Shown: piece after piece, positions 9,909 to 40,842 of the stretch
Position numbering within the stretch: position 1 is the first letter of the stretch
Layout of the letters: each line of letters opens with the position of its first letter
Made by a program: the position numbers and the translations under genes
Source: an uncultured Candidatus Saccharibacteria bacterium
GTDB taxonomy: Bacteria; Patescibacteriota; Minisyncoccia; Phycocordibacterales; WO2-35-19
NCBI GenBank assembly: GCA_964630525.1
Contig: CAZVUY010000004.1
Span: 11,448 to 75,447, forward strand
DNA: 64,000 nt
Direction: 5' to 3'
The notes under the pieces: generated by a model
Told to the model about the DNA's origin: nothing
Database searches by the model: none
The model's input: the letters and a program-made list of their open reading frames with translations, nothing else

Positions 9909-10373
9909 ATGCAAGAGGAGAAAATAGAAGAGGAATACGTGGTTTTGGATGAGGCGGGGGAGGTAGAGAAAGCCAATCTGAAGGCTAAAGTAGAGGGTTT
10001 TTTAGAAAGCCGGTTGTTCGTAGCGACTGTTTTGGTGCTCGTATCCCTTATCGCTTTTTTCTTGGGGAGGGTGTCGGTTTCTAAGGTTGGGAAGGTCCCG
10101 GTCAGAGTGATAAATAGTAGCACGGCTGCTTCGATCAGCGGAGGAGTGGTCAATACTGGGGCGAACCTCCAGGTCGATGAGTCAGATGGTGCTATGCCGG
10201 CTGATTCGACCAGCGAAATAGTGGTCGGCTCTAAAAACGGCAACAAATATCACTATCCTTGGTGTCCTGGCGCCAAACAGATCGCCGATAAAAATTTAAT
10301 CAAGTTCAATTCCATTGCAGAAGCGAAATCTAAAGGTTATACTCCTGCTAGCAATTGCAAAGGTCTAAAATAA
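9909..10373 (+). CDS. Membrane-anchored protein with C-terminal Ada-like Cys-rich metal-binding domain
   Basis: TM segment (LFVATVLVLVSLIAFFL). C-terminal KYHYPWCPGAKQIADKNLIKFNSIAEAKSKGYTPASNCKG fits the Ada N-terminal Zn-domain pattern C..N..F.S..EA..G..PC..C. Confidence 0.4.
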   Translation: MQEEKIEEEYVVLDEAGEVEKANLKAKVEGFLESRLFVATVLVLVSLIAFFLGRVSVSKVGKVPVRVINSSTAASISGGVVNTGANLQVDESDGAMPADSTSEIVVGSKNGNKYHYPWCPGAKQIADKNLIKFNSIAEAKSKGYTPASNCKGLK

Positions 10374-11656
10374 AAATGTCTAAGTCTTATTATAAAACGT
10401 CCAACGATTTTCTCATCTCCCTCAAGTTGGGATTTTTTTTGGCACTGCGCCAAGTCAAAAGGTCAAACAAGGCGACTACTGGCTTGATTATTTTTGTGAT
10501 GACCCTCACTTTTTTAAACTTGGTGGTAGTAAGAGGGGTTTTGGTCGGACTGATCGAGGGTTCGGTTCAGGTCTATCGCAATTTTTCGACCGGAGAAATT
10601 TTTATTTCCAAGCTGCCCAAAAAAAGCTACATAGAAAATAGTCCTTATATATTGGAGACGGTGAAAACCCTGCCCTGGGTTCAATCTTTCTCAGCGCGTT
10701 ATCTAGAGTCTGGCAATATTGAAGCTGATTATAAAACCAAGATTCGCCTGACAGATGCTTCCAATAGTGCTGGAGGAGTGATCGCCGGCATCAATCCAGA
10801 GGCTGAAAATGCGACCACCAATCTTTCCGCGAAAATAGTTGAAGGCCAGTTTCTAACCTCAGAAGACACCGAATACATTTTACTTGGTTCTAGTTTGTTG
10901 AAAAAATATGTGCCGGTCGACTCGGCCAGCTTCAGTTTTTTGGAAAATGTCGAGCCGGGTACTAAAGTGAGGGTCACGGTGGGTGGCAATACCAAAGAAT
11001 TTACAGTGAAAGGGGTGATCCAAAGCAAGGCCGATGAGGTCGATTTTCGAGCCTATATCTTGGATACAACCTTGCGCAACATGATTGGTCGCACCGACTA
11101 CAATGTCGATGAAGTGGCTATCAGGTTGAAGCCGGGAGTCGATCCGGTGTTGGTGAAAGAGGCGCTCCTCAAGTCAGGGGCGGGGGAGACTGCGAGAGTA
11201 CAAACAGCGGACGACGCGCTCCCTAAGTTTGTGATCGATATCAAGAATACTTTTGCCATTTTGGGTAATGTTGTCGGCTCAATTGGTTTGGTGGTAGCTT
11301 CGATCACTATCTTTATTGTGATTTTCGTCAATGCGATCACGCGCCGCAAATTTATCGGTATTTTGAAAGGGATTGGTATCAGTTCTCAGGCGATCGAGAT
11401 CGCTTATGTTTTCCAATCTCTTTTTTATGCCATCTTGGGTATTGGTATCGGACTCCTCTTTCTTTATGGTTTCTTGGTCCCGTTTATTGCCGCCAACCCG
11501 ATCAAGTTTCCGTTTAGCGACGGTATTTTGGTAGCTGAGGTACCAGCCACTTTCTTCCGGGTTTTCTTGTTGTCTGTCGCCACTTTAGTGGCTGGCTATG
11601 TGCCAGCAAGGATTGTGGTAAAGAAAAACACGCTGGACTCAATATTGGGGAGATAG
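10355..11656 (+). CDS. ABC transporter permease (MacB/FtsX-like, large periplasmic loop)
   Basis: 433 aa with TM1, a ~230-aa periplasmic domain and three C-terminal TMs (FtsX-like). Co-operonic with the ATPase and the HlyD adaptor. Confidence 0.8.
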   Translation: MQRSKIKMSKSYYKTSNDFLISLKLGFFLALRQVKRSNKATTGLIIFVMTLTFLNLVVVRGVLVGLIEGSVQVYRNFSTGEIFISKLPKKSYIENSPYILETVKTLPWVQSFSARYLESGNIEADYKTKIRLTDASNSAGGVIAGINPEAENATTNLSAKIVEGQFLTSEDTEYILLGSSLLKKYVPVDSASFSFLENVEPGTKVRVTVGGNTKEFTVKGVIQSKADEVDFRAYILDTTLRNMIGRTDYNVDEVAIRLKPGVDPVLVKEALLKSGAGETARVQTADDALPKFVIDIKNTFAILGNVVGSIGLVVASITIFIVIFVNAITRRKFIGILKGIGISSQAIEIAYVFQSLFYAILGIGIGLLFLYGFLVPFIAANPIKFPFSDGILVAEVPATFFRVFLLSVATLVAGYVPARIVVKKNTLDSILGR

Positions 11657-11683
11657 TATGACGAGCTCACTATAAATAATTTT

Positions 11684-12376
11684 ATGAATATTATTGAAGT
11701 AAAAAATTTAACAAAGTCTTTCAAAAGCGGCGATCAAGAGCTGGTGGTTTTGAATGAAATGTCTTTTGAGATAGCACAAGGTGAATTTTTTGCGATCACT
11801 GGTCGTTCTGGTTCTGGTAAATCGACCCTTCTTTACCAATTAGGCCTTTTGGATCATCCAAACTCTGGTGAAATCATTATTGATGGGGTGAACGTCTCAC
11901 TTCTCGACAATGAAGGTAGAACCAAGTTTAGACTCAAAGAACTCGGCTATGTTTTCCAGGATTATGCACTGGTACCGGAATTGTCGGCTATCGAAAATAC
12001 AGTCATCCCTCTTTTGATGCAAGGGCTAGAAAAAAAAGAGGCTTATCAAAAAGCGGAGGCAGCTCTAACAAAAATAGGTTTGGGGGGTAGATTGAACAAT
12101 TTGCCAAACCAACTCTCTGGTGGTGAGCAGCAAAGAGTGTCGATCGCTAGAGCGATCGCTCATGATCCGAAGATTATCTTTGCCGACGAACCAACCGCCA
12201 ATCTTGATTCAGAAACAGCCGATACCGTGATGAAAGCCTTTATTGATCTCAATCAGCAAGGCCAAACCATCATCATGGTCACTCATGAACCAGAATACGC
12301 CGCTTTGACCCGAAGAGCGATCAAGATTGGTGATGGCAAGATCTTGGCTGACGGCAAGCCAGACGAAGTGATTTAG
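11684..12376 (+). CDS. ABC transporter ATP-binding protein (MacB/LolD-like)
   Basis: Walker A GRSGSGKST, signature LSGGEQQRVSIARA, Walker B IIFADEPT. Confidence 0.9.
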   Translation: MNIIEVKNLTKSFKSGDQELVVLNEMSFEIAQGEFFAITGRSGSGKSTLLYQLGLLDHPNSGEIIIDGVNVSLLDNEGRTKFRLKELGYVFQDYALVPELSAIENTVIPLLMQGLEKKEAYQKAEAALTKIGLGGRLNNLPNQLSGGEQQRVSIARAIAHDPKIIFADEPTANLDSETADTVMKAFIDLNQQGQTIIMVTHEPEYAALTRRAIKIGDGKILADGKPDEVI

Positions 12377-12404
12377 TCAAAATAATTTGTTATAATAGCG
12401 ATTT

Positions 12405-13889
12405 ATGAGTTTCCCAAATTTTATTTCCAAGAAATTTATATTTTATTTTATTGGTATTTTAGCCGTCGGTTTTATTGGTGTCAGTGTTTTCAAAAATGGC
12501 AACGGCAAACAGACTGTTTCTGTAAATTATACTGATATTATCCAAGAAGTGGCGGCGACCGGCAAAGTGAAGCCAAATCAAAGTGTTGATCTGGGTTTTG
12601 ATAAGTCTGGTCGGGTCGCTTCGGCGGCAGTTGTGGTCGGAGACACAGTAAGCCCTGGCCAAGTTCTGGCTACTTTGGAAGCGGGGGAGATATTAGCGGA
12701 TCTCAATAAAGCCAAAGCCACCCTGGTGGAGGAGAACATTAAGCTGCGTGAACTAAAAAATACTTCCCCAGTCTCTTATAGCGATGCGGGAACCAATCTG
12801 CAGGCGGCGATTCGAGAAGGTTTTGTTATCGCTGATAACGCGGTTCGCAACAGAACTGATCAATTTTTCAAAAACATTGCAAACAACCCCTACTTTGAAG
12901 TTTCTTTTACTGATGGCAACTATGTTCATTATTTTAAAGTACCGAGCGAGATCATACTGGATATCAACAACTCTCGTAAACAAGTCGAGATTATTTTAGA
13001 CAATTGGCAGAGTCGTACCAATAACCTAGGTCAATCCAATCTGGTGGCCGAATCAGAGAAAGCGTTGGCTGATCTCAACTACATCGCTTCTTTCTTGAAT
13101 AAAGTCGCGAGTGCTGTCAACACTTTTTCTCCAGCCGAATATGCCTATGAATCAACCGTTACTACTTACAAAACTACTGTTTCTTCGGCGAGGACCGAAG
13201 TGGCCAATGCTATATCTGATCTAGTGTCAGCTAAGGACAAATTCAACACCGCCCCAACTTTGGGTGCCGGGGGTCAATTTGAAGACATTCTAGCCCAAGA
13301 ATCAAAAGTGGCTCAGGCCCAATCTTCCATAGCCGCTTTGGAAGCGAGTCTTAACAAAACAATTATCCGAGCCCCTTTTAGCGGGGTAGTGACTCTACAA
13401 GATGCCAAGGTTGGCAATGCTGTTTCTCCTGGCAGCACTCTTATATCAATCATTAGCCAAAACCAAATGTATGTTGAAGCTAATATTTCTGAAATCCAAA
13501 TTGGCAAAATCAAGGTAGGCGATAGGGTGTCGATCACTTTCGATGCTTTTCCGAATGAAAAATTTAGTGGAGCAGTCGCTTATATTGAGCCGGGGGATGT
13601 GATTATCGACGGAGTGGTCAATTATAAAATCCGAGTAAGCCTAGATAGCTATGAGGAACGTATCAAAAGCGGCTTGACCGCCAACCTCAAGATAGAAACA
13701 GCTCGCAAGTCCGGTGTCCTCGCTGTCCCACTTTACGCTGTTGTGAAAGAAGACGGTAAGGCCTTTGCCAACAAGAAAATTGGAGAAAAAGAGTACCAAA
13801 AAGTACTGATTGAGCTTGGTCTCTCTGGCAACAACGGCCTAGTGGAAGTGCTAAACGGCCTCTCCGAAGGCGACACCCTCGAGTTCTGA
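12405..13889 (+). CDS. HlyD-family periplasmic adaptor (membrane fusion protein)
   Basis: N-terminal TM, lipoyl-like halves (GKVKPNQSVDLGFDKSGRV ... IIRAPFSGVVTL), long coiled-coil insert, C-terminal beta-barrel. Completes a MacAB-like tripartite exporter. Confidence 0.75.
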   Translation: MSFPNFISKKFIFYFIGILAVGFIGVSVFKNGNGKQTVSVNYTDIIQEVAATGKVKPNQSVDLGFDKSGRVASAAVVVGDTVSPGQVLATLEAGEILADLNKAKATLVEENIKLRELKNTSPVSYSDAGTNLQAAIREGFVIADNAVRNRTDQFFKNIANNPYFEVSFTDGNYVHYFKVPSEIILDINNSRKQVEIILDNWQSRTNNLGQSNLVAESEKALADLNYIASFLNKVASAVNTFSPAEYAYESTVTTYKTTVSSARTEVANAISDLVSAKDKFNTAPTLGAGGQFEDILAQESKVAQAQSSIAALEASLNKTIIRAPFSGVVTLQDAKVGNAVSPGSTLISIISQNQMYVEANISEIQIGKIKVGDRVSITFDAFPNEKFSGAVAYIEPGDVIIDGVVNYKIRVSLDSYEERIKSGLTANLKIETARKSGVLAVPLYAVVKEDGKAFANKKIGEKEYQKVLIELGLSGNNGLVEVLNGLSEGDTLEF

Positions 13890-13897
13890 TTTGACTA

Positions 13898-14674
13898 GTG
13901 TGGTATAATAGGAAAATGTTAGAAAAATACCTGCAGGACATAGGACTGAGTGATAAAGAAGCCACTATTTATTTGGCACTTTTATCTGTCGAGTACGCTT
14001 CCGTGCTTGATTTGTCAAAAAAGACCAAAATAAAAAGACCAACCGTTTACGTAATTTTGGAGTCACTTGCCAAAAAGGGTTTGGTCGGCGAAACCACAAT
14101 CGGCAAAAAAACCAATTATCAAGCCGAACCTCCGGAACGATTGGAAACCTTTGTTGAACGCCGGAAATTGCAATTAGAGGAGTCAGAAAAAGTTTTGAAG
14201 GATGTTATTCCTCGTATCAAAAGTTTTTCTAGAGATGCGGGAGAAAAGCCAATCATCAAATATTTTGAAGGTAAAGAGGGGATTGTAAGTACCGCTGAAG
14301 AGTTTTTTGCTAGCGAGACCGATAATAACGACCTGGTCTATTTGCTCTATCCCAGAGACTTGCTCGATGAAACTTTCCCCCAGAAAGAAAGAGAAAAATA
14401 TCGTAAGTCCAGGTTAGACAGGAAGATAAAGTCAAAAGTTTTATATACCTATACTAAAGGGGTGATCGCTTCTGACGAAATGGGGGAAAGGATTAAGGTT
14501 GATGAAAAAAGATACCCTGTTACTTGTGATATCGGAATCTATAAAGACAGGGTACGTATCAGTGTACTGGGTAAAAAATTGTCCGGTATTTTCATCAAGA
14601 GCAAAGATGTAGCCGATACTCTTCAGAGCTTGTTTAGAATGGCGTTTGAATCGATGAACAAAAATAATAAGTAG
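13898..14674 (+). CDS. TrmB-family transcriptional regulator
   Basis: N-terminal wHTH (ATIYLALLSVEYASVLDLSKKTKIKRPTVYVILESLAKKGLV), typical TrmB_N, with a C-terminal effector-like domain. Confidence 0.55.
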   Translation: MWYNRKMLEKYLQDIGLSDKEATIYLALLSVEYASVLDLSKKTKIKRPTVYVILESLAKKGLVGETTIGKKTNYQAEPPERLETFVERRKLQLEESEKVLKDVIPRIKSFSRDAGEKPIIKYFEGKEGIVSTAEEFFASETDNNDLVYLLYPRDLLDETFPQKEREKYRKSRLDRKIKSKVLYTYTKGVIASDEMGERIKVDEKRYPVTCDIGIYKDRVRISVLGKKLSGIFIKSKDVADTLQSLFRMAFESMNKNNK

Positions 14675-15165
14675 AAAACCCCACAGATTACTTGCTCATA
14701 CGACAAGCTTTCATCTGTGGGGTCCCGCCAACTACTCTCACTGTCTAAATGGCTCTAAACAGTGAGAGAACGCTATTTCCCTTTGTACCGTTTTTTTGGA
14801 CCGGCTCAGGGTTGTACTGGAGCGTCCCCCATAGGGAACACCTCCTTTTGCAAAGTACCTGGTTGGAGGTCGACTTTGTCGGATCCTCAAGACCGCTTCC
14901 TGAAGAGTTATGCTACCTCAGGAAGCGGTCCTTTTGGACCCTTCTAGTCGAACATAACTACCTCCTTTCCAGATCTGCACTAAGTATAGCAAATTATTAA
15001 AATTTGTCAACTATTTTTGTCTTTTTTAATTTTTTAAACCACCAAAATTAGCATTATTTGTCAGGCAAAATAATCACTAAATATTTCAGTATAACCTTAA
15101 AATGGCTTATTTTAAGGTCTTTTTTCGATCGTACAAAAGAAAATAAAATTAAATGTCAAAAATAC

Positions 15166-15193
15166 TTGACAAAATTAGTGCCGTGAGTATAAT
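15166..15193 (+). promoter_or_regulatory. Consensus sigma70-type promoter (TTGACA-N16-TATAAT)
   Basis: ttgaca at 15166-15171, a 16-nt spacer, tataat at 15188-15193. It sits at the AT-rich/GC-rich boundary and faces the GC-rich island. Confidence 0.6.
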
Positions 15194-15552
15194 AGCCATC
15201 AGAAAGTTTGAAAAGAGCTTCTGCCCCAACTTTTGAGCCCGGCCCAGTAACATATCGCCAGGGCTCACAAGTGGGAGCGGAAGCAAACTATGTGGCCCAA
15301 AAGGGCAACCCCACTGCGAGGGTATTTCGGAGGGACCAAGGTCTACTCCACACATGGTGGTGTCGCAGACCAGCTATCCGCTCCCGTGAATATAACAACG
15401 ACTCAACTTCAGCTGGTTCGTGTAGCGGATCGGATCCTGGCAAAGGCCGGCCTGAACAAGGTTGGTCAGCCGAAGAGAAACTGCAAGTATGAAGATCTGT
15501 TGGTGAAAGCCATCAAGACTCCTTGTGGTGGACAACCTGGTTGGCGACGGTA

Positions 15553-15578
15553 GGGGAGATTACTCCCCAATCTTTTCA
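15553..15578 (+). terminator. Intrinsic terminator-like hairpin (GGGGAG-ATTA-CTCCCC, then AATCTTTTC)
   Basis: Perfect 6-bp GC stem with a tetraloop, followed by a T-run. It lies ~360 nt downstream of the 15166 promoter. Confidence 0.5.
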
Positions 15579-15682
15579 GGATTTAAGTAAATTGAATTTT
15601 GGAAAGACCACATGATTGCAAAATCGTGTGGAAAAGAGTTCTTTGATTTTTTGATCCAGTAAACCCTGACCGAAAGGCAGGT

Positions 15683-16735
15683 ATGGATAAGGAGATTTTT
15701 GTGAACAACAATAGCAAGCTCGTCACGATTTTCGGTGCTTTGGTGCCGACGTTCTTCACGACCAAAGGTGGTGTCTCCATTTCGGAGGTTGCTCGCCTGC
15801 AAGCTGAAGCCAAGCAGCAGAACGATACGTTCTGGGCCAGGCTGACCGATGCAACCCGCGGTGTGTTTCGCAAGGTTGTTTCGTTCGTGGGGGCCGGTTC
15901 TTCGGTGCCTCAGACTGTCGCTGGCCCGACCATTTCGGTTGGGGAAATCGGCGGCTACGGCGAGGTGGCGGCGCGCAACGCGTCGACGGCGGTGTTTATG
16001 CACGGTGTCAAGCTCTTCAAGAGTTTGCAGGAGAGGCTTGAGGTGATGGATTTGCGGCTTTTTGTCGTAGAGAAGTTGCCCGAAGCTCCTCCTAGCCCCG
16101 AGCGTCCGCAAGAACCCTCAGAGCCCACACGGGCAAAGAGTGGTACGGTCTGTGACACCCCGGTGTTCATGATGCTCGGCAACATCGACGAGATGATTGC
16201 TGGCCTCAAGCCGGAGGTGCTCGCGCGGTTCGACTTCGCCTTCTGGAAGAGGGCGAATGAGCTCAATGCTCGCGCGGCGGTGATCGGCAAGCTGCTCTCG
16301 GAGCAGGGTTCGTTCTTCCGTGAGGTGATCAAGCCTCTACCTTCGGGTGGTGAGCAGGTCACCCAGGCTGGGGTAGTGATATTCCGGTACGAGAAGGCTT
16401 ACTCGCCCGACGAGCTCGTCGACTTCGTTCGCATTCGCGAGACCCTCCAGGCTGAGTACAACGATTTGCAGAAGCAGCTCAATGGGCTGAAGAAGCAGAT
16501 CAAGGACGCCGTCCGGGCTTACAACCTGGAACAGGAGCGTCAGTACCAGGCCGCGTATGGTGAGTACAGACTCGCATACGCCTCCTATCAGGCTGCCGTT
16601 AAGGAGCTCTTGGTTAATCACCAAGACGCTCTGAAGCGGCACGCCCAGGAGATGGAGCGGATTCGCTCTTCTGCCGAAACGTTGCGACAGGAGGCGCTGG
16701 CTGAAATGGCCACCCTCCGCGTGCGCACGGAGTAG
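15683..16735 (+). CDS. Hypothetical protein with C-terminal coiled coil (island gene A). Probable true start is GTG 15704, which follows AAGGAG
   Basis: Long ORF in a GC-rich segment with protein-like composition. The C-terminal ~100 aa are Q/A/E/R/Y-rich heptads. It is followed by tandem hairpins at 16836-16880. Confidence 0.5.
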   Translation: MDKEIFVNNNSKLVTIFGALVPTFFTTKGGVSISEVARLQAEAKQQNDTFWARLTDATRGVFRKVVSFVGAGSSVPQTVAGPTISVGEIGGYGEVAARNASTAVFMHGVKLFKSLQERLEVMDLRLFVVEKLPEAPPSPERPQEPSEPTRAKSGTVCDTPVFMMLGNIDEMIAGLKPEVLARFDFAFWKRANELNARAAVIGKLLSEQGSFFREVIKPLPSGGEQVTQAGVVIFRYEKAYSPDELVDFVRIRETLQAEYNDLQKQLNGLKKQIKDAVRAYNLEQERQYQAAYGEYRLAYASYQAAVKELLVNHQDALKRHAQEMERIRSSAETLRQEALAEMATLRVRTE

Positions 16736-16928
16736 CGCAGGGCTGACGAGAGGACATGTGCATCCGTAGAGGTTGGTAGAGTAGGAGGTTGAAAGATCTT
16801 CTGCTCCCGCCTCTGCGCGCGCGTGGTCCCACGCTGTTGTGATAAAAAATACAATGAGAATTGTATTGGTTTAAAATCAAACCAAGACACCACACACATC
16901 GGAGCGTTCCCGCGATTTTTCCACTCAG

Positions 16929-16981
16929 GTCTGAGTCTGGAGTCTGCAGGGAAGGCTCGTCTGGGTCTGTGGCTGTGTCTG
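16929..16981. repeat. Array of six GTCTG pentamers within 53 bp
   Basis: GTCTG at 16929, 16935, 16942, 16959, 16965 and 16977, in noncoding DNA between island genes. Confidence 0.7.
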
Positions 16982-17172
16982 CGTTTGGGTCTACAACCTT
17001 CACAACGGCGTGGGACACCTCGTCAGTAAAATCTTCTTTGTTCTTAGCTCGAGAGAATTCTCGAGCTCCCATTTGAGAAAGTAATAAGTTATTTTCTGAA
17101 ATGGGAGAAGGGGAGCCATTTGTTTAATCTTCCGAAAGTTTTGAAGGGAGAAATCCTGCCTAGGGACTACCC

Positions 17173-17201
17173 TTGACAAAGGTGGTTGATAGGTGTATAA
17201 T
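17173..17201 (+). promoter_or_regulatory. Consensus sigma70-type promoter (TTGACA-N17-TATAAT), then RBS AAGGAGGT
   Basis: ttgaca 17173-17178, tataat 17196-17201, AAGGAGGT 17212-17219, ATG 17225. Confidence 0.6.
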
Positions 17202-17224
17202 ATAAGGCAGAAAGGAGGTCAATC

Positions 17225-17437
17225 ATGACCTGGGCAGATTTTTTCAACAGGCCGAAGTACGTCTTCGGCCTCCTCGCCACCTTGGTGGTAGTGTGGTTCC
17301 TCTTCCACCCGGAGGTCTTGGTTGACCTCATCAACCGGGTGGTGATGCCCCTCTTGATGCAGGGGCTGGTGATCGCTATCGTGATCTGGGGTATCAGGAT
17401 CATGATCTTCGGCACCAAAAAGCCACCGAAGAAGTAG
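17225..17437 (+). CDS. Small 2-TM membrane protein with basic C-terminal tail (holin-like topology)
   Basis: 70 aa with two hydrophobic helices (FGLLATLVVVWFLF / GLVIAIVIWGIRIMIF) and a KKPPKK tail. Strong RBS and promoter. Confidence 0.5.
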   Translation: MTWADFFNRPKYVFGLLATLVVVWFLFHPEVLVDLINRVVMPLLMQGLVIAIVIWGIRIMIFGTKKPPKK

Positions 17438-17626
17438 CGGCGCAAAATCCGGTGACCAGCTTTCGCTGAAGCTTCAGCAGGGCAAGCGCACCGGTGTCCG
17501 AGTGAATATACCTCGGGCTTCTACCATAATTTCTTTGAAATTTTAAGGAGATTATGGTGGGAGTAAAAACCCAAAGTTCTTTCAAAATCGCCGGCGGGCA
17601 TTGTACGCAAAGAGGAGACTACTATC

Positions 17627-18037
17627 ATGAAATACATCGCAACACCGTATACACTTACCTTCGTGCCCGCAAACGATGATATTGTGCGAATGAAGGCGAT
17701 GCAACTTCTTATTGATGCTGCGTGGTCAGCTCAGTGGGATGCATGTCAAAATGAGCAGGAGGGCTGGGTGCGCCACTGCCGGTTAAAACTCGAGAGTGGA
17801 CATGTTACTTTGTTGGTGCGTCACTACCAGACCAAGGAAGAAAACTGGGCAGTTCGCATCAACTGCAATAACACGACGAATGGTAAGTTTGTCGTGAGAG
17901 CCTCTTCCAAAAAAGACTTGGAGGAGATTTGGAAGGTAGTTTCAAACCCTCGCCCTGGCAGATTCTTCGACATGGAGTATCTTACTCCTAGGGATATCCA
18001 AGGGGGCGCGGTCTTCTCCGTTGAGTCTGATCAGTAG
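17627..18037 (+). CDS. Hypothetical protein (island gene C)
   Basis: 136-aa ORF preceded by AGAGGAGA. Composition is soluble-protein-like. No recognisable motif. Confidence 0.45.
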   Translation: MKYIATPYTLTFVPANDDIVRMKAMQLLIDAAWSAQWDACQNEQEGWVRHCRLKLESGHVTLLVRHYQTKEENWAVRINCNNTTNGKFVVRASSKKDLEEIWKVVSNPRPGRFFDMEYLTPRDIQGGAVFSVESDQ

Positions 18038-18201
18038 AAAAGGCCTGACCAGCCGTAAAGAGGTCTCTACCTACGAAAGGAGGTGAAAAAACAGGCTGCT
18101 TGGGAACAGGCAGTCTTTTTACATGTAAAAAATAGGTTTTGTCTTCATTTTGGCTTCAAAATGGGTCAAAAAGGGGAGGTAAATAGCACAATATTTGGGG
18201 C

Positions 18202-18230
18202 TTGACGTCAAATCTATAATATGCTATAAT
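18202..18230 (+). promoter_or_regulatory. Near-consensus sigma70-type promoter (TTGACG-N17-TATAAT), followed by a hairpin
   Basis: ttgacg 18202-18207, tataat 18225-18230, then hairpin AAGGCAATCCAG..CTGGATTTTGCCTT and RBS AAGGAGGT at ~18297-18304. Confidence 0.55.
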
Positions 18231-18463
18231 AAAGGCAATCCAGTAGTAATGCTGGATTTTGCCTTATATAGAGCCTCATTCTAAGAATGGGCTAAAAGGT
18301 AAGGAGGTTGAGTGTTAAAGCAGAACAAAAATTTCAGGTTCGCGTTCTGATTCTTTCACTTCGAACTCCCTTGGTCTTTGCTGCTCCTAGCCAAATAGGC
18401 AAGGGGACTAATTTGAGAAATAAATAGCAAAGGTCGGGATTAAAATTAAACAATCGGCTTATT

Positions 18464-18961
18464 TTGCAGACTACCGCTTTGGGTTTACTGATGATCGCTT
18501 CTGGTATCACTGGGTTCAACGGAGCCCCTTCGGCAGCCAATGTTCTGCCTCCGGAAGTTATTGAGGTAAATGAAGTTCTTCCAGATAATAAGAAAAAGGA
18601 AGAAGAAAGGGTGATCAAAAGAAGTATGACAGTCGAGGAGTATGTGAGAAATTATTTTTCTGATATACCAGTTTTGATCGAGGTGGCTAAGTGTGAATCA
18701 CGGTTTCGTCAGCATGATAAAAATGGCGAAGTTCTACGTGGTGAAGTTAACAACCTTGATCGTGGTGTGATGCAGATCAATGAATATTATCACAATGAAG
18801 ATTCAGCTAAGCTTGGCTACGACATATTGACCATAGAAGGGAACACTGCCTATGCTCGCTACCTTTTCGAGAAGTATGGCATAAAGCCATGGAACTCCTC
18901 AGCTCCTTGTTGGAGCAAAACATTTGCTTATTCCGAATATAAGGAATTGGCATTAAAATAA
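18464..18961 (+). CDS. Secreted lysozyme-like / lytic transglycosylase-family protein
   Basis: Signal-like N-terminus (TALGLLMIASGITGFNGAPSAANV). VAKCESRF ... GVMQINEYYH fits the SLT/lysozyme-like E-S ... G.MQI motif pattern. The ORF caller starts it on TTG; ATG 18491 is an alternative start. Confidence 0.5.
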   Translation: MQTTALGLLMIASGITGFNGAPSAANVLPPEVIEVNEVLPDNKKKEEERVIKRSMTVEEYVRNYFSDIPVLIEVAKCESRFRQHDKNGEVLRGEVNNLDRGVMQINEYYHNEDSAKLGYDILTIEGNTAYARYLFEKYGIKPWNSSAPCWSKTFAYSEYKELALK

Positions 18962-18967
18962 TCAGCT

Positions 18968-19008
18968 AAAACAAAACAACTTTCTTAACAGGGAAGTTGT
19001 TTTGTTTT
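18968..19008 (+). terminator. Long perfect hairpin terminator after the lysozyme-like gene
   Basis: AAAACAAAACAACTT / AAGTTGTTTTGTTTT form a 15-bp perfect stem with loop tcttaacaggg. The descending arm is T-rich. Confidence 0.55.
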
Positions 19009-19178
19009 GTACCAAAATCAAAAACAGGGGTCATGTGCCCAGTTTTTAAATCCTTACGAGGGGAGGAGCTCCTGAGAATGATAGGAACGTCGCACAATAT
19101 ATCTTTTACGTACTATCTCTAGATACAAAAAAGGGGCCGTTAAGACCCCTCTTTTGAACCCCTTCCCTGTCGCCATTT

Positions 19179-19460
19179 TTAAAATTTGGCCAAAATATTT
19201 TTAATTAAATTTTTGAGATAATCCCAAATTGTAATGATCAGGTCTTGATACTTCTCCCAGCCTTGGCTGCCAAAATTGTAGATTTTGTCTAAAACTGATC
19301 TGAACTTGCCGGTGGTCAAAAATTCGATTATATCGATGCTGTATGCGTACTTCAGGATCACCAATGCTCCGACTATTATCAAAGTGATCTGGATAAAGCC
19401 TCTTTTATCGTTTTTCATGGTATTAATAGTATCAATAAAGTTATTTAGAGACAAAGTCAT
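19179..19460 (-). CDS. Small hypothetical membrane protein
   Basis: 93 aa with one hydrophobic helix (IQITLIIVGALVILKYAY). AT-rich host-like composition. Confidence 0.3.
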   Translation of the reverse strand: MTLSLNNFIDTINTMKNDKRGFIQITLIIVGALVILKYAYSIDIIEFLTTGKFRSVLDKIYNFGSQGWEKYQDLIITIWDYLKNLIKNILAKF

Positions 19461-19580
19461 TGTTGCTTAGCTTAGTTAGATAAAAACAAAAATAAAATTT
19501 TCAAAAGCTGCAGATAAATCTCGCTTGTTGAAAATTTTATTTTATTTTTGTTTCTTGTTTGTTGAGCGTTTAAAAATTTA

Positions 19581-20852
19581 TTAGAAATATAACATTGGGT
19601 CCAAATAAGCTTTAACATCGGCAATTGGAATGCTCATATTTTTGCAATTGCGGCTCGAAGAGTATTTTTGAATGGTCACACCTTGGCTTGCATAAAGGGT
19701 TAGATGCAAATGTGGACCAGTCGAATATCCGGTTTGGCCGCTATAACCAATAACTTCACCAGTACCAACAACCTGACCAGCACCAACCTTGATCAGGTCC
19801 AAGTGCGCATAAAGACTTGATAGGCCATTGTCGTGTTTGATGAGTACCCACTTACCATAAGAATAACAGCCACGTTGCTCGTCAGTATTGCCTACCCCTT
19901 GGACCGTCCCAGAAAGGACCGCTTTGACCGGAGTCCCACGGCTGGCTCTAAAATCAACCCCGTTGTGGGTGCCGGAAACATAGAGACGCTTCGAGTCGAC
20001 TGTCCGACCAAAACTTTGGGTTATAAAGACGTTGTCGAGTGGCCAAGATAAGATGCCTTTCTTGGCACTTGGAAAGCTATTTGGATCAATCGCTCTTTTC
20101 AGGTCTGATTCAAACTGAAACAATTCTTTTTCAAAGCGCTCCTTCTCGGCTTGGCGTTCGGCGAGAATTCTTTTATATTCAGCTTCCTTGTTTTTGGTTT
20201 CGGCGAGCAGATTGTTCTTCTCCTTTTTATTGATATCAAGTATTTTCTTTTGGTCACTCAGATCCGATTTTAGAGAAAGCAAGGTCTTCTTTTCTTTTTC
20301 GGTACTATTCTTTTTTTCAGAGAGGTCTATTTTGTGGTTTTGCAAGGCCGCCGATTGTTCGCGGATTTTTAGTTGGACTTGGCTTATGGCTTCGTACTGA
20401 TCCAATACTTCTGAAAGGCTTTGACTATTGAGAAAACTCTCGATTAGAGAACTTTCATCATTCTGACGAATTTCATTCAGGGTTTTCTTTATCGCTTCGG
20501 TGTTAGCTTTGATTTTTTGCTCGGTATCTCCTATTTCGCCACCCAGTTGTTCGATAGTGAGAGCGGTTTTTTCAATATTGGTTTCCGTTTTTTTGATCTC
20601 GGTACCTATCTTTTTTTGGTTGATGTCGAGAGTCTTGATTGTATTCTGTAAATTTTTGGCCTCGCCGCCCACTATTTCAATTTGTCTTGAGTAAGCTTTT
20701 ATTTCCTCTTCCAAAGCTTTTATTTTTTCGTTGTGAGAATCGATATTTTCTTTTAACTTATCGACCGATTGAGCCCGGCCTGTGCTAACAAAAACCAGGC
20801 TTACCAAAAATATCAGGGTGATTAATTTTCTGATTTTAAAATCAAATTTCAT
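19581..20852 (-). CDS. M23-family peptidoglycan endopeptidase with N-terminal coiled coil (EnvC-like layout)
   Basis: Signal/TM, ~250-aa coiled coil, and a C-terminal LytM domain with HNGVDF and GPHLHLT metal-binding motifs. Confidence 0.85.
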   Translation of the reverse strand: MKFDFKIRKLITLIFLVSLVFVSTGRAQSVDKLKENIDSHNEKIKALEEEIKAYSRQIEIVGGEAKNLQNTIKTLDINQKKIGTEIKKTETNIEKTALTIEQLGGEIGDTEQKIKANTEAIKKTLNEIRQNDESSLIESFLNSQSLSEVLDQYEAISQVQLKIREQSAALQNHKIDLSEKKNSTEKEKKTLLSLKSDLSDQKKILDINKKEKNNLLAETKNKEAEYKRILAERQAEKERFEKELFQFESDLKRAIDPNSFPSAKKGILSWPLDNVFITQSFGRTVDSKRLYVSGTHNGVDFRASRGTPVKAVLSGTVQGVGNTDEQRGCYSYGKWVLIKHDNGLSSLYAHLDLIKVGAGQVVGTGEVIGYSGQTGYSTGPHLHLTLYASQGVTIQKYSSSRNCKNMSIPIADVKAYLDPMLYF

Positions 20853-33909: not shown

Positions 33910-35538
33910 TTAAGAATATTTTGGCAATTCGATCGTGAAGGTGGTGCCTTTGCCCAGACCATCGGAATCAACCTTGATATCTCCTTGGTGCGCCTCAACC
34001 ATCTTCTTGGCGATGTAGAGGCCAAGACCGGTACCGATGACGTTGGTTTTATTGGCATCTTTGGTGCGCGAGAATTTGGCAAAAAGCTTGCCCATTTCTT
34101 GAGGATCGATACCAACTCCGGTGTCTTTGATGGCCACCTTTACTTTATTACCCTCAGTGAAGACCGCGATCGATATGTCACCTTTCACGGTGTATTTAAT
34201 GGAATTGTCGATCAGATTGCTGATTGCCTGTTTGATTTTGTTACGGTCGGCATTGACCTCTTGTTTTGCACTTTTGATGTTGACCTGAAGCTCTAATCCA
34301 GCATTTTGTATGTTGGGCTTTATTTCATTTGCTACCTCGTTTACCAGAGCACCGATATCAAAAATCGATTTTTCATAAACCATCCTCCCCTGTTCAATTC
34401 GAGAAATATTAAGGAAATCATTGACAATATTGATGAGGTTTTGGCACGATTTCATAACGATCTCTACTGAGCTTGCCGCCTTGGGTGGCAAGACTCCAAA
34501 ATCCCCCTCAAGCAACATCGAGGAGTAGCCTTTAATGGCGGTGAGCGGTGCTCGGATCTGGTGTGTCGCCAGGGAGAGGAATTCTGATTTGAGTTGGTCG
34601 AGCTCCTTGAGCTTATCGTTGGCTAATTGGAGGTCTTTGGCCAACTTCTCAATCTTTTCTCTCTGTTCGACTTCTCTAAAAACACTTTTAACAATAAGTA
34701 TACCAAGTGTAACAACCAGTATAAATATTCCGCTTCTGAAAATCACTAACTCTAGATTGTTTTTTGCGACTATAACCTCAAACAGACTAACTATTGATAA
34801 TACAAAAGTAAGCGTGCTTGTTGCCAAAACCTTAATTTTAAGAAGATTTTGTTTCGATATTGCGTAAAATGTAAGAATAACGAATGGGAAAAAGAATACC
34901 GGTGCTAGCCCAACGTATCTTGATTTGTCCAATAATGCTGGCAGAATAAAATTGAATATAATGATAAACGAGAAAGTGATAAAAGTACCCAAAGCCACTA
35001 GTTTGTAAGGTTTTCTTTGTCCGCTCTGAACACGAATGGCTTTTCTAATAACTATAAATATTCCACTGACAACAAGGCTTAGTATAATTAACCCAAACAA
35101 AACTATCGCTGGTCCGTTGTTTACCTCCAGTATTTTCCCTGTGTCAGAGGCGGCTTTGATACTACTGAATATGAGAGGAGTGAACGCTACTAAAGAACTT
35201 ACTGTCACTAGGGGTAATAGTAGATATTTATAGGATTTAGGAAAAATTATCAAGTCATTAGGAAAAACATAAAATAATCTAAAGAAAGAAAATGCGTGCC
35301 AAATTGCAAAGAATATAGTTAATTTTAGTAGCCAGAATCCTAAAGTTAAATTTGTGGCTTGATATACCAAGTAATTGGTTACGCTGTAGAGCACTGTAAG
35401 TATTGAGAAGAAAAGAAATGATTGGTTGGTAACACTCTTTGTATTATTAAAATAAACGGTAAAACCAAGGGTGATAATGGCCGATGTTGTTATTGCTACT
35501 GCGAGCAGGTCTAGATTTGTAATTTCATTTATACTCAT
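33910..35538 (-). CDS. Sensor histidine kinase with 7-TM-like N-terminal domain (orphan, no adjacent response regulator)
   Basis: About 7 N-terminal TMs, a coiled-coil linker, HisKA H-box (LSLATHQIRAPLTAIKGY) and HATPase_c (NLIDNSIKYT, GTGLGLYIAKKMVE). Confidence 0.85.
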   Translation of the reverse strand: MSINEITNLDLLAVAITTSAIITLGFTVYFNNTKSVTNQSFLFFSILTVLYSVTNYLVYQATNLTLGFWLLKLTIFFAIWHAFSFFRLFYVFPNDLIIFPKSYKYLLLPLVTVSSLVAFTPLIFSSIKAASDTGKILEVNNGPAIVLFGLIILSLVVSGIFIVIRKAIRVQSGQRKPYKLVALGTFITFSFIIIFNFILPALLDKSRYVGLAPVFFFPFVILTFYAISKQNLLKIKVLATSTLTFVLSIVSLFEVIVAKNNLELVIFRSGIFILVVTLGILIVKSVFREVEQREKIEKLAKDLQLANDKLKELDQLKSEFLSLATHQIRAPLTAIKGYSSMLLEGDFGVLPPKAASSVEIVMKSCQNLINIVNDFLNISRIEQGRMVYEKSIFDIGALVNEVANEIKPNIQNAGLELQVNIKSAKQEVNADRNKIKQAISNLIDNSIKYTVKGDISIAVFTEGNKVKVAIKDTGVGIDPQEMGKLFAKFSRTKDANKTNVIGTGLGLYIAKKMVEAHQGDIKVDSDGLGKGTTFTIELPKYS

Positions 35539-36596
35539 ACCTTTTTAATTTTGGGAGGTTGTTTTTGTGAGCGAGCGGTTACTTTGTCAGCATAACCAAT
35601 TCTGAATACGAAACTCACAACATCTTTTTTTATATTGAAAATTTCTCTAATTATACTATATGTTTTTTTTATTTCATGAATGTGCTTTTCTTTGAAGATA
35701 ATTTTATCATTATGGATAATTTTGTTTGCCAAGAATACTATACCTGTAATTGGTTGTATATATAAATTATGTTTGGTGGCTATTAACCAAATTTTCTGCA
35801 TTATTCTTCCCACCTCAATAAATTTTATCGGCTCATATTTCTCAATGGTAATAATTCCGATACCTCCACCATGGCCGTATATTTTAGCGTTTGTTTTTGA
35901 TACTAAATTAGAGAACCCAAAAATATTCAGAAATCTAACGATGGGCCATACTTTGATTATTCTAAAGATGTATTCTACTATGGCCGGTAATTCTAAGGTT
36001 TTTATGTATAGTCCATGAGTGAACTGACTATTCTCCTGTTCTTTCCAGTTTATTTCAGCAAAAAACGATTGATGGATCAACTTGTTTTCTAGGGCAATTT
36101 TTTCCATTATACTTACAGCTTTCGCAAGAGCGGTTCTTTTAGTTCTACTTTCAGTTATAAGAATTCTGATTCCCGAATCATTTTGATTTACGGATAGGAT
36201 TTCAGTTTTAGCTAACTGATCAATCTTTTTATCGTAATAAATCTTTCGGTTTGTATGCCTGCCGGTTATATAACTGAAAAGTTTGCTGTTGGGATTTTTT
36301 TTTGTTTTTATAAAAGATATGATGGCGACTAAATCTTTTTCTTTAGCCTTATTTAGTACAAGATCTATTTTAGCCTCATACCCATAATGGCTTGAGGCTA
36401 TACAAATATTTTCTATAAGAGCTCCGTGGGCTATATAAGAACCAGTTTGCTCAAAATTCAGCACCGGATTATCTTTGTCTGGTATGTTGTATAAAAAAAG
36501 TTTATTCGATTTTATTTCAAATCTCCATGGTTGTGAATTACCGCCAGAGGGGGCTTGGATACCATAATAGATTATATCTTCTATTAACTTATTCAT
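35535..36596 (-). CDS. Tandem nitroreductase-fold oxidoreductase (SagB/McbC-like FMN-dehydrogenase candidate)
   Basis: The N-terminus YGIQAPSGGNSQPWRF is the classic nitroreductase FMN motif. At 353 aa it is consistent with two fused nitroreductase-like halves. Very AT-rich. Confidence 0.55.
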   Translation of the reverse strand: MNKLIEDIIYYGIQAPSGGNSQPWRFEIKSNKLFLYNIPDKDNPVLNFEQTGSYIAHGALIENICIASSHYGYEAKIDLVLNKAKEKDLVAIISFIKTKKNPNSKLFSYITGRHTNRKIYYDKKIDQLAKTEILSVNQNDSGIRILITESRTKRTALAKAVSIMEKIALENKLIHQSFFAEINWKEQENSQFTHGLYIKTLELPAIVEYIFRIIKVWPIVRFLNIFGFSNLVSKTNAKIYGHGGGIGIITIEKYEPIKFIEVGRIMQKIWLIATKHNLYIQPITGIVFLANKIIHNDKIIFKEKHIHEIKKTYSIIREIFNIKKDVVSFVFRIGYADKVTARSQKQPPKIKKV

Positions 36597-36598
36597 TC

Positions 36599-38182
36599 CT
36601 AAATTTCTTCTAATCTCATAATTTCTATTATTTTTTCTACATCTTTGTTTAGAGGTCTGTCGATATTAACAAAAGAAGACACCTTCCTAATCTTTTTTAC
36701 TACATTTTGAGAATGTGTCGAGCAATTATTCAACCCCCTAAATTCCAAAGCTTGCGCGCTCGAGATTGTTAGTATAGAAACCAGTCTTTCTAGATTCGCC
36801 ACAGATTCCTTTAGGTCTTGTGCTGCGTGTGCTGCTAAGCTGTTTACGTCCTGATTATCTCCTTCTGTGGGGATCATATACGCTTGTTGTGATTGGGCCA
36901 ATTTCCTATTTTGTACCGTAAGTGAAGCAGATAAAATGTGCAGAGGTCTAAATCCATTATAAATTTCAGAATGTTCAATTAGATTTGCTGGAAGACCAAA
37001 ATTTTTTCTCGGGTGATAAAGGTTACTTAATATTGCGTGCAACCAGGTTGAAGCCTGAGAGACGTCCATTTTTAAAAGATCACACGCTTCAGTAACATAA
37101 TAGCCCATAAAGTTTGCTCCGTGACATATTTTCATTGAACTAGGATCTATCACGGGGTTATCATTTATCGAATTTATCTCATCTTCAATCCACTTTTCTG
37201 CTGTTTGTAGGTTCTCTTTAAATACACCAAACCCTTGTGGTACTGACCTAAGAGAATAATAATCTTGAAGATTATTATCTATATTGTTGGACCCGTTTGT
37301 TTTGAAGTTTTTTAAGCTTTTTATTCTCAAATCAGAAAGATTTCTAATCAATCGACTTCCTTTCCATAATTTTCTAATAATATTATTAACTTCAATTTCC
37401 CCACTATGATTTTTTAATTTGTGTACCAATGGATCGTATGCGCTATCGATTACACGGAGTGACTCAAGTGCCATTGATATTGCTGACAGCATTTGATCAA
37501 ATATTCTTTTTAGGTCATACAATGAAATTGCTGCGACCGATGTCATAAAGGATGTTCCATTTATAAGCGCCAAACCCTCACGGGTTTCTAGTTGTAATTT
37601 CTCAAGCCCAACATTTTTCATAGCAATTGCAGATTCAATTTTTCGATTTCCATACAATACCTCTCCTTTTCCTATGAGGGCACTTGCAATACTTGATAAA
37701 GGTATCAAATCACCACTAGCACCAATTGACCCATATTTTCGAATAACCGGATGTATTTTATTGTTTATAAAATCTAAAAGAGAATCAACTACTATTGGTC
37801 TAACACCAGAATGACCAAGTGCCAAACAGTGGGATCTCAACAACATAGTTGCTCTTGAGATCTCCTCGCCCATTTCTTCTCCGAGCCCACAATTATGGGA
37901 AATAACGAGATTTAGTTGGCGATTTTTTAACGACTCAGAATACTCTTTTTCATCACTGTCTAAGTTTTTATCCAATATATTAACCTGGCTGCCAAACTGT
38001 GTGTTAAGTCCATAAACAGGCGTTCTTGTGTCAGCTGAATTTATAAGTATCTGATGAGAAGCCTTCATTTTTGCGATAGATTGTTCGGATAGTCTCACTT
38101 TTGAATTTTCTCTAGCCACCGCTTTGATTGCTGTTAAATCCAATTTTCTTCCTACACCTATAGTTATCATTTTCGTTTTCAT
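36599..38182 (-). CDS. MIO-dependent aromatic amino acid ammonia-lyase/aminomutase (HAL/PAL/TAM family)
   Basis: GSIGASGDLIPLS contains the Ala-Ser-Gly triad that forms the MIO cofactor. Length and conserved blocks match the histidine/phenylalanine ammonia-lyase family. Confidence 0.85.
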   Translation of the reverse strand: MKTKMITIGVGRKLDLTAIKAVARENSKVRLSEQSIAKMKASHQILINSADTRTPVYGLNTQFGSQVNILDKNLDSDEKEYSESLKNRQLNLVISHNCGLGEEMGEEISRATMLLRSHCLALGHSGVRPIVVDSLLDFINNKIHPVIRKYGSIGASGDLIPLSSIASALIGKGEVLYGNRKIESAIAMKNVGLEKLQLETREGLALINGTSFMTSVAAISLYDLKRIFDQMLSAISMALESLRVIDSAYDPLVHKLKNHSGEIEVNNIIRKLWKGSRLIRNLSDLRIKSLKNFKTNGSNNIDNNLQDYYSLRSVPQGFGVFKENLQTAEKWIEDEINSINDNPVIDPSSMKICHGANFMGYYVTEACDLLKMDVSQASTWLHAILSNLYHPRKNFGLPANLIEHSEIYNGFRPLHILSASLTVQNRKLAQSQQAYMIPTEGDNQDVNSLAAHAAQDLKESVANLERLVSILTISSAQALEFRGLNNCSTHSQNVVKKIRKVSSFVNIDRPLNKDVEKIIEIMRLEEI

Positions 38183-39624: not shown

Positions 39625-39638
39625 TGGATTTATTGGTA

Positions 39639-40763: not shown

Positions 40764-40842
40764 CTGTTCTGGCGGATCTATTCCTACACTTACTGATCTG
40801 GCTATTCTACAATAAATTCTTAAAAATTACTATCAAAGATTA

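Follow-up and report, generated by a model that had tools for sequence, protein, structure and literature searches.

A predicted lysozyme-like protein at a conserved patescibacterial locus and the unrelated accessory insertion beside it

We analysed a 64,000-nucleotide (nt) stretch of DNA from an uncultured Candidatus Saccharibacteria bacterium (contig CAZVUY010000004.1; the whole stretch is called the window below), in which a gene for a 70-amino-acid (aa) membrane protein, p70, precedes one for a 165-aa lysozyme-like protein, p165. Other genes are likewise named for the lengths of their products (p93, p136 and p350), and comparison loci from other assemblies or contigs carry the labels L001-L099. 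An earlier note on this DNA had placed p70 and p165 together inside one foreign-looking island, as a candidate lysis or cell-wall-attack module; we find that the p70 interval and p165 are two unrelated units side by side. The features on either side of their junction are:

17173-17201, + strand: sigma-70 promoter of p70, TTGACA-17-TATAAT (12/12 consensus match)
17225-17437, + strand: p70, an open reading frame (ORF) of 70 aa with two transmembrane helices and a KKPPKK tail
17627-18037, + strand: p136, an ORF of 136 aa, soluble
18093-18116, + strand: terminator-like hairpin closing the p70-p136 unit (10-bp stem, then TTTTT)
18202-18230, + strand: native p165 promoter, TTGACG-17-TATAAT (11/12 consensus match)
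18464-18961, + strand: p165 ORF, 165 aa, with a mechanical TTG start at 18464 and a putative ATT start at 18461
18692-18700, + strand: C77-E78-S79 of p165; E78, where the first long helix ends, is the putative general acid
18758-18781, + strand: D99-R-G-V-M-Q-I-N106 of p165, the beta-hairpin signature

p165 is the second gene 3' of p70, as first described, with p136 between them. From the N-terminus it consists of a weakly hydrophobic segment at about residues 4-18, a putative anchor or signal, then a Pro/Glu/Lys linker that varies within the family, and at about residues 55-165 a lysozyme-like domain. Gly, Ala, Ser and Thr are abundant in the N-terminal segment, QTTALGLLMIASGITGF, which has a Kyte-Doolittle mean of about 1.7-1.8 and fits a predicted type-II signal anchor; the linker behind it is acidic and poorly conserved. 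An alignment of 99 homologues (46-87% identity) identifies C77, E78, S79, R82, D99, G101, V102, M103, Q104 and N106 as invariant, and further H110, N127, P142, W143, C149 and W150, with C77 and C149 the only two invariant cysteines. The description of p165 as a signal-peptide protein with an E-S...G.MQI pattern is thus right for the motifs, both present and invariant, the proposed catalytic Glu (E78) among them; the signal peptide holds less well, the segment being only weakly hydrophobic and having no basic n-region. Judged by its motifs, p165 is a hybrid, with C-E-S and a single Cys pair as in Rpf, D-x-G-x-x-Q-I-N as in GH22 and E-S plus G-x-M-Q as in SLT.

Profile comparisons lead to the same superfamily. 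The best Pfam matches of p165 are SLT_3 (PF18896; 17.8 bits, E=0.0046, threshold 27 bits) and SLT (PF01464; 13.9 bits, E=0.042, threshold 21.3 bits); 28 of 32 family members match the first (best E=0.0013, all sub-threshold) and 13 of 32 match the second at E<0.1, none passing. C-type lysozyme (PF00062) gives no match at E<=1, PHROGs holds no match for p165, and NCBIfam and PADLOC hold no meaningful match for p70, p136, p165 or p350. HMMER searches of the PDB with the single p165 sequence and two profiles return nothing significant, and the sole PDB match of the 99-sequence profile is a c-type lysozyme (2fbd, E=0.31). Aligned directly by hhalign with hen and human lysozyme, that profile covers the whole catalytic core (70 columns, score 27.0, P=5.5e-4, probability 30%) and pairs E78 with E35 and D99 with D52 of the hen enzyme, GVMQIN with GILQIN and G..PW with GMNAW. 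Hen lysozyme alone scores 24.7, a value reached by none of 30 shuffled hen lysozyme sequences (maximum 16.9); T4 lysozyme gives no match to the profile.

A first AlphaFold2 model (full-length, from 32 close homologues) had a mean predicted local distance difference test (pLDDT) of 58 and returned Foldseek noise only; it is superseded by a second, domain-only model built from 99 sequences of two subfamilies, for which a divergent subfamily was recruited (pLDDT 77, predicted template-modelling score 0.74). In this model the C-E-S motif lies on helix 22-32 (model numbering), followed by short strands and four helices. All 50 of the PDB matches listed by Foldseek belong to the lysozyme superfamily, c-type lysozymes first; the others listed are alpha-lactalbumins, MltF, Slt, goose-type lysozyme (GEWL), phi29 gp13, T7 gp16 and RpfB (4emn_B, TMt 0.57, root-mean-square deviation 3.8). 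Against BFVD, Foldseek finds one true viral homologue, the remainder being LT_GEWL, SLT or lysozyme proteins (probability up to 0.92, E >=0.1). The modelled fold is that of the lysozyme-like superfamily, with a Glu at a helix end, a beta-hairpin and a helical lobe. Similarity to lysozyme and SLT folds, anticipated from the motifs alone, is therefore seen in the sub-threshold SLT_3 and SLT matches, in the c-type lysozyme alignment and in the Foldseek matches of the pLDDT-77 model.

The cysteine arrangement raises one alternative for p165, in which a small lysozyme-fold domain with one disulfide would be Rpf-like, or would act in wall signalling or as a scaffold without degrading the wall; its nicking or binding of peptidoglycan would then promote growth, in place of bulk autolysis. 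The C-E-S motif and the C77/C149 pair resemble the Rpf arrangement, as a lead only; RpfB structures are among the Foldseek matches, and a phage homologue (below) has a full-length, sub-threshold match to the Rpf family Transglycosylas (PF06737). Neither p165 nor its 31 aligned homologues match PF06737, however; hhalign of the profile with Rpf sequences is weak and covers the C-terminal part only (P=0.012), and D-x-G-V-M-Q-I-N is nearer to c-type lysozyme and SLT than to the GG(L/V)QF motif of Rpf. We regard this alternative as improbable.

The family has more than 900 homologue clusters, all unnamed or 'hypothetical' and none with a precomputed Pfam domain; the literature searched does not describe it. 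All homologues come from Patescibacteria (for example, Zambryskibacteria, Paceibacterota and Parcubacteria) in the collections searched, a taxonomic range that is a lower bound, the GTDB scan having used exact peptide patterns. p165 represents a new, unannotated family within a very well known superfamily.

Synteny was counted in 80 species-representative genomes, and the counts are lower bounds, many loci ending at contig ends. p165 occupies this chromosomal position in all 80. On its 3' side and on the opposite strand lie an M23 peptidase (58/80 genomes), GluRS (57/80), MurG (51/80) and p93 (29/80), part of a converging string that faces p165 and consists of a small transmembrane protein, the M23 peptidase, GluRS, MurG, FtsW, MraY and a DD-carboxypeptidase. 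The two members nearest to p165 in the window are:

19179-19460, - strand: p93, a conserved small protein with a single transmembrane segment; its gene converges on p165 and ends the M23-GluRS-MurG-FtsW-MraY string
19581-20852, - strand: M23 endopeptidase with an N-terminal coiled coil, PcsB/EnvC-like (Peptidase_M23 5.1e-27; CC_PcsB 1e-4, below cutoff)

Within 6 kb of p165, all 80 genomes lack homologues of p70, p136, p350 and the TrmB-family regulator described below. On the 5' side, the window has a MacB-type ABC system (10355-13889: an FtsX-domain permease, an ATPase and an HlyD/YknX-like adaptor), whose linkage is loose; the adaptor is beside p165 in only 10 of the 80 genomes, and the permease and ATPase in about as few. 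p165 is a native, vertically inherited core gene of Patescibacteria of the Paceibacteria/Zambryskibacteria type.

Copies of the family also occur in viral sources. The 39.6-kb siphovirus MW202577 encodes a protein, 'lyZ1', that is 29% identical to p165 and has the same anchor-linker-domain layout; its PF06737 match, mentioned above, reaches 17.6 bits and its PF00062 match 17.9 bits, each against a threshold of 27. The BFVD homologue A0A516MN84 (E=9e-8, template-modelling score 0.77) is 41% identical, and in the 40-kb IMG/VR contig UViG_3300014205_000124 (L099, 3444-7665) a copy with 50% identity is flanked by the genes for the large terminase and the portal; this copy also opens with a hydrophobic stretch. 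The terminase-portal slot is an unusual place for a lysin. No relative of p70 lies beside the phage copies. If the hosts of these viruses are Patescibacteria, the substrate of the family would probably be the patescibacterial wall, which we infer would favour a role of p165 on the wall of its own cell.

This bears on a second alternative, in which p165 is a surface-displayed muralytic effector directed at the host, thinning or opening host peptidoglycan at the attachment site for uptake of nutrients or DNA. It would fit a lysozyme-like domain predicted to be extracytoplasmic on a flexible linker, and a family confined to Patescibacteria in the collections searched, and there is a general proposal that patescibacterial lytic transglycosylases compromise host envelopes (PMC11665869). 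The gene is linked, however, to MurG, FtsW, MraY, M23 and DD-carboxypeptidase genes of its own cell and not to genes for pili, secretion or adhesion, and its product has no targeting or host-binding domain. The viral-source copies at 41-50% identity would suggest the wall of the carrying lineage as substrate, and the putative, very weak start codon described next suggests low-level housekeeping expression. We consider host attack unlikely, with rather more in its favour than wall signalling.

The leader of p165 is conserved in its own right. In 28 of 28 aligned leader sequences (the window and 27 others) the promoter keeps its position, and leader length in relatives is 140-230 nt, with further conserved blocks. 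Its two principal elements are:

18236-18262, + strand: 5' hairpin of the p165 leader, 9 bp and a U-run, just after the start site; conserved in 28/28 leader sequences
18438-18465, + strand: nucleotide-invariant 28-nt element, GATTAAAATTAAACAATnGGCTTATTTT, containing an in-frame ATT at 18461-18463

The hairpin, which may be a 5' stabiliser or attenuator, is the only consensus helix that RNAalifold finds in the 28-sequence alignment, and it shows no covariation. A riboswitch was considered and dropped, only this hairpin having emerged; Rfam finds no ydaO/c-di-AMP or other riboswitch in the leader.

The 28-nt element is invariant in 28/28 aligned sequences even at sites that would be synonymous, while the codons that follow (T-T-A-L-G-F) wobble freely. 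An in-frame ATG, GTG or TTG lies 5' of the element in 10 of the 28 and is absent from the other 18; several have a stop 1-5 codons 5' of the element, and one has a stop inside it. In a wider set of 68 distinct family members from three subfamilies, an in-frame ATT stands at the onset of amino-acid conservation of the hydrophobic segment in 63; in 54 of the 68 no ATG, GTG or TTG intervenes between that ATT and the stop before it, and in 27 this stop is no more than six codons 5' of the ATT. For some members the next canonical start lies past the entire hydrophobic segment, and in the second subfamily the codons after the ATT (L-N-F) differ only synonymously. The TTG at 18464 in the window directly follows the ATT and would be a fortuitous neighbour. 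The family thus probably starts at a conserved non-canonical AUU codon, at 18461 in the window, with a predicted N-terminus of M-(F/L)-Q-T-T-A-L-G-L-L-M-I-A-S-G-I-T-G-F. Because of such a start, gene callers would truncate p165 at an internal Met or extend it 5'; its N-terminus is probably mis-called in this way and the export signal missed.

The DNA on the 5' side of the p165 promoter has a different history, which comparison with two relatives resolves into nested parts:

13909-17171, no strand assigned: outer accessory segment (TrmB regulator, about 1 kb with two structured RNAs, and p350), absent from the 98%-identical strain L093
17172-18177, + strand: inner accessory unit (p70, p136), in L093, absent from L092
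13916-14674: TrmB-family regulator (TrmB Pfam 5.6e-15)
15683-16735: p350, a 350-aa coiled-coil protein (60 unnamed representatives, no family match)

L092, the closest other relative (73% nucleotide identity), has an empty site, in which only about 50 nt separate the stop of the HlyD-like gene from the p165 promoter; its homology to the window restarts at 18178. L093 matches the window over 13534-13908 and 17172-19474, with about 110 unrelated bases (L093 376-485) in place of the 3.26-kb TrmB/RNA/p350 segment. L093 having p70 and p136 without 13909-17171, the insertion is nested and strain-variable. GC content is 0.58 for p350, 0.55 for p70 and 0.49 for p136, against 0.41 for p165 and 0.43 for the window. 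The higher-GC insertion stops near 18177, and p165, with its own promoter, belongs to the native flank, so the single foreign island earlier drawn around both genes does not stand.

We found no recombinase, integrase or phage structural gene (terminase, capsid) in 13909-18177 by ORF, Pfam and PHROGs inspection, no terminal direct or inverted repeats or att-like sites at the insertion boundaries in a repeat search, and no tRNA gene at the junction. By tblastn, p136 occurs only in L005 and L093, of the same lineage as the window, and only there does it accompany p70; L005, a public assembly of the same strain, breaks inside the insertion and starts just before p136. p350 has no relative in IMG/VR. 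A non-coding stretch of 436 nt (16736-17171) separates p350 from the p70 promoter; in it are a hairpin of 19 bp (17066-17107) and a pair of 17-nt inverted repeats (16826-16842 and 17000-17016). Elsewhere in the window, about 6 kb at 35001-41000 has a GC content of 0.32-0.36 against about 0.43 for the rest and may be another foreign region.

Within the insertion, p70 is a real gene by its pattern of substitution: pairwise differences among homologues at codon positions 1/2/3 are 267/118/494, which indicates coding on the + strand, and protein identity is always above that of the antisense shadow ORF. The -35 box of its promoter begins exactly at 17173, and an AAGGAGG Shine-Dalgarno sequence and an ATG follow. 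As the earlier note had it, the product combines two hydrophobic segments, at about residues 13-27 and 40-62 (Kyte-Doolittle means over 15 residues reach 2.68), with a basic tail. Basic residues near the N-terminus (R9, K11), the acidic loop and the TKKPPKK end lead us to assign it N-in/C-in topology.

Homologues of p70 form 18 clusters (61-97% identity) among 5.8 billion proteins, and a metagenome scan added two short loci. They define seven independent contexts, the window and L093 counted as one. In L007 a TrmB gene is followed by about 1.1 kb of uncalled DNA, four small ORFs, the p70 homologue, a 78-aa ORF and a tyrosine recombinase; in L008-010 p70 comes after a DUF1653 gene, in L011 after DnaG, RpoD and a 314-aa protein, and in L097 and L098 it lies 0.8 kb after a Ro60/TROVE gene; L095 and L096 supply the two further contexts. 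Within 3 kb to each side, p70 itself is the only protein that the contexts have in common, save one 3' ORF shared by L011 and L095. None of the seven has a muralytic or phage structural neighbour, and no homologue of p350 or p136 lies beside p70 in other loci. PHROGs gives no family for p70, Pfam noise only and no holin family, and INPHARED and IMG/VR no relatives.

These data decide against the lysis cassette that the earlier note had in mind. On that account p70 would be a class-II-like holin, on a prophage remnant or island, that makes the membrane permeable and releases or activates p165 as its endolysin. The size of p70, its two transmembrane helices and its basic C-terminus are holin-like; p165 is lysozyme-like and has phage homologues of the same anchor-linker-domain layout; and the two genes lie 1 kb apart on the same strand here. 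But p165 holds its locus in 80/80 species genomes, none of which has p70 nearby, and the p70 insertion is absent from L092, where the site is empty. The contexts of p70 and the phage databases searched also speak against a phage holin, as do the phage copies of p165, which have no p70 relative beside them. Separate promoters for p70 and p165, with a terminator-like hairpin between them, and the lack of an integrase, terminase or capsid gene in the window insertion point the same way. We give a cassette very little credence indeed. The holin-and-lysin pattern arose because an insertion happened to land beside a fixed native gene, and closeness within a variable region is no evidence of a module.

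Taken alone, and without competing for the role of p165, p70 may be an autonomous membrane-active accessory gene of RNA-rich variable regions; it might encode a toxin, a factor for exclusion or immunity, or, within some membrane complex, a small subunit or a regulator. Such a gene would fit the 12/12 promoter and strong Shine-Dalgarno sequence that p70 has to itself, its sporadic distribution, a GC content above that of the host genome and its variable contexts (a tyrosine recombinase once, Ro60/TROVE with long uncalled DNA once, TrmB with a conserved RNA 5' domain twice). It has no conserved partner antitoxin or immunity gene, however, and no PADLOC or NCBIfam family match, and viability is difficult to explain if a toxin is driven by a consensus promoter that looks constitutive; the idea is possible, and we hold it loosely.

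The outer segment is notable for its putative RNAs. Two near-perfect divergent sigma-70 promoters lie between TrmB and p350, at 15166-15193 (+) and 15010-14983 (-), and each would drive one of:

15199-15575, + strand: putative RNA of about 377 nt, ending at a terminator-like hairpin (folding z-score -5.1)
14976-14676, - strand: putative RNA of about 300 nt, ending at the hairpin that follows TrmB (folding z-score -8.8)

For both, none of 100 shuffles folds as well, and neither 14600-19600 nor the Ro60 loci match any Rfam family, at gathering thresholds or at E<=1. The + strand RNA has its promoter and opening ~100 nt (window 15135-15282) conserved at 73-74% in two other patescibacterial loci, L007 (5499-5685) and L098 (16-199). 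The L007 copy is again downstream of a TrmB gene; the L098 copy lies 1.4 kb 5' of a Ro60/TROVE gene, itself followed by a p70 homologue. That Ro60 gene (TROVE and vWA_Ro60 domains; L097 1513-4190, L098 1616-4293) is in a patescibacterial contig, flanked by 0.8-1.6 kb without called genes; the window has no Ro60 homologue. The conserved 5' domain may be a Y-RNA-like or a shared leader element. A palindrome, TGTCAA-AAATAC-TTGACA (15154-15171), overlaps the -35 box of the promoter for the + strand RNA; L007 and L098 preserve it almost intact, with a single base changed in L098. It is a candidate operator for the adjacent TrmB-family regulator.

Our preferred reading, to which we assign a probability of roughly 0.6, is that p165 is an anchored peptidoglycan glycosidase of the cell's own wall and that p70/p136 and TrmB/RNAs/p350 are unrelated accessory insertions. 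The N-terminal segment would insert N-in/C-out, the flexible linker holding a catalytic domain of ~110 residues outside the membrane, where Glu78 would act as general acid on the MurNAc-GlcNAc bond. Asp99 aligns with Asp52 of hen lysozyme, and the chemistry may therefore be hydrolytic (muramidase) and not that of a lytic transglycosylase. The fixed position of the gene, convergent to the M23-GluRS-MurG-FtsW-MraY-DD-carboxypeptidase string, suggests housekeeping remodelling of the cell's own wall, or daughter-cell separation, as its physiological role, and p165 may work alongside the neighbouring PcsB/EnvC-like M23 endopeptidase. Its expression would be tightly set and low, through the conserved promoter, the 5' hairpin, the leader and a weak ATT start behind the invariant 28-nt element. 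The p70/p136 and TrmB/RNA/p350 parts are nested, strain-variable insertions into the short intergenic spacer 5' of p165, with p70 a conserved two-transmembrane inner-membrane protein under its own constitutive-looking promoter and, on this reading, not functionally coupled to p165. What the analysis shows is the ORFs and motifs, the fold class, the synteny and distribution, and where the insertion begins and ends; catalysis, topology, the own-wall substrate, ATT initiation and the physiological role are predictions from these.

Several observations weigh against this reading. The N-terminal segment of p165 has no basic n-region, and its export is a prediction; the beta-hairpin part of the model has a pLDDT of only ~63-65. 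PDB Foldseek matches have E-values >=0.26 and template-modelling scores of 0.35-0.52, all Pfam matches fall below gathering thresholds, and taken singly none of the structural or profile matches to characterised enzymes reaches significance. Synteny with wall-synthesis genes is no proof of an own-wall substrate; an obligate episymbiont might just as well use an enzyme that is universally conserved to attack its host. A membrane-damaging role is possible for p70. The more unusual features of the locus, namely the ATT start behind its invariant element and the pair of structured RNAs, are comparative inferences.

A bolder joint reading, which we offer tentatively and with clearly less confidence than the own-wall glycosidase, would make the p165 family a Patescibacteria-specific mini-lysozyme that combines an Rpf-like C-E-S/disulfide arrangement with a c-type Glu/Asp pair and is exchanged with phages. 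An obligatory AUU start in the 28-nt element and a conserved structured leader would throttle it; in cells that have few regulators, this would be a dedicated safety catch on the translation of an autolysin. As for the insertion, its two new structured RNAs, with a 5' domain that recurs by Ro60/TROVE, would hint at a Y-RNA-like system with p70 as a travelling companion.

Whatever the detail, a very common patescibacterial 'hypothetical protein' becomes readable as a lysozyme-like wall glycosidase tied to a division and cell-wall cluster. p165 is a candidate for how ultra-small, wall-bearing cells split or remodel their peptidoglycan, and the viral-source copies are a candidate lysin of phages that infect these cells.

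Comparison with known systems places both proteins more closely. Class II holins, such as S68 of phage 21, have two transmembrane domains and N-in/C-in topology. p70 shares with them a size of 70 aa, two such domains, a short acidic loop and a lysine-rich C-terminus; it differs in lying beside no endolysin in any independent context and in no phage, in matching no Pfam or PHROGs holin family and in having no dual-start motif. It thus fits class II holin topology, but not holin context or family.

The phage endolysins P1 Lyz and phage 21 R carry a signal anchor of the signal-arrest-release (SAR) type. In sequence layout, which is the level compared, p165 resembles them in a weakly hydrophobic, Gly/Ala/Ser/Thr-rich N-terminal segment followed by a muralytic domain, as does 'lyZ1' of MW202577, whereas p165 is a chromosomal, syntenic core gene with no pinholin partner. 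For its start codon the precedents are E. coli infC and pcnB, AUU-initiated genes under translational control. Like them, p165 would have a conserved in-frame ATT where coding conservation starts, with no canonical start in most species; unlike them, it belongs to the wall hydrolase class, and its 5' element is nucleotide-invariant.

With the Rpf domain, p165 shares a mini lysozyme-like domain of ~80-110 residues, a Cys directly before the Glu and a second Cys near the C-terminus; there is no significant sequence or profile match, the strand motif differs, and the carriers are Patescibacteria, not Actinobacteria. From the family-1 lytic transglycosylases and LT_GEWL proteins (Slt70, MltF and phage SLT-domain proteins) it is set apart by an invariant Asp two residues before G-V-M-Q, by two invariant cysteines, by a domain much smaller than most cellular ones and by sub-threshold scores. 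It has in common with them E-S at a helix end, a G-(L/V)-M-Q-I strand motif and an aromatic-rich third motif; SLT_3 and SLT are its best Pfam matches, and most of the BFVD and several of the PDB fold matches (MltF, Slt) are of this group. Compared with c-type lysozymes (GH22), p165 is bacterial and predicted to be membrane-anchored, lacks a PF00062 match and the four GH22 disulfides, and has a Glu-Asp spacing of 21 residues against 17, with template-modelling scores of ~0.4-0.5. It nevertheless shares with them the pattern (F/C)-E-S-x-F...D-x-G-(I/V)-(L/M)-Q-I-N, with Glu and Asp aligned to E35 and D52, and they provide both its top PDB Foldseek matches and its only PDB profile match.

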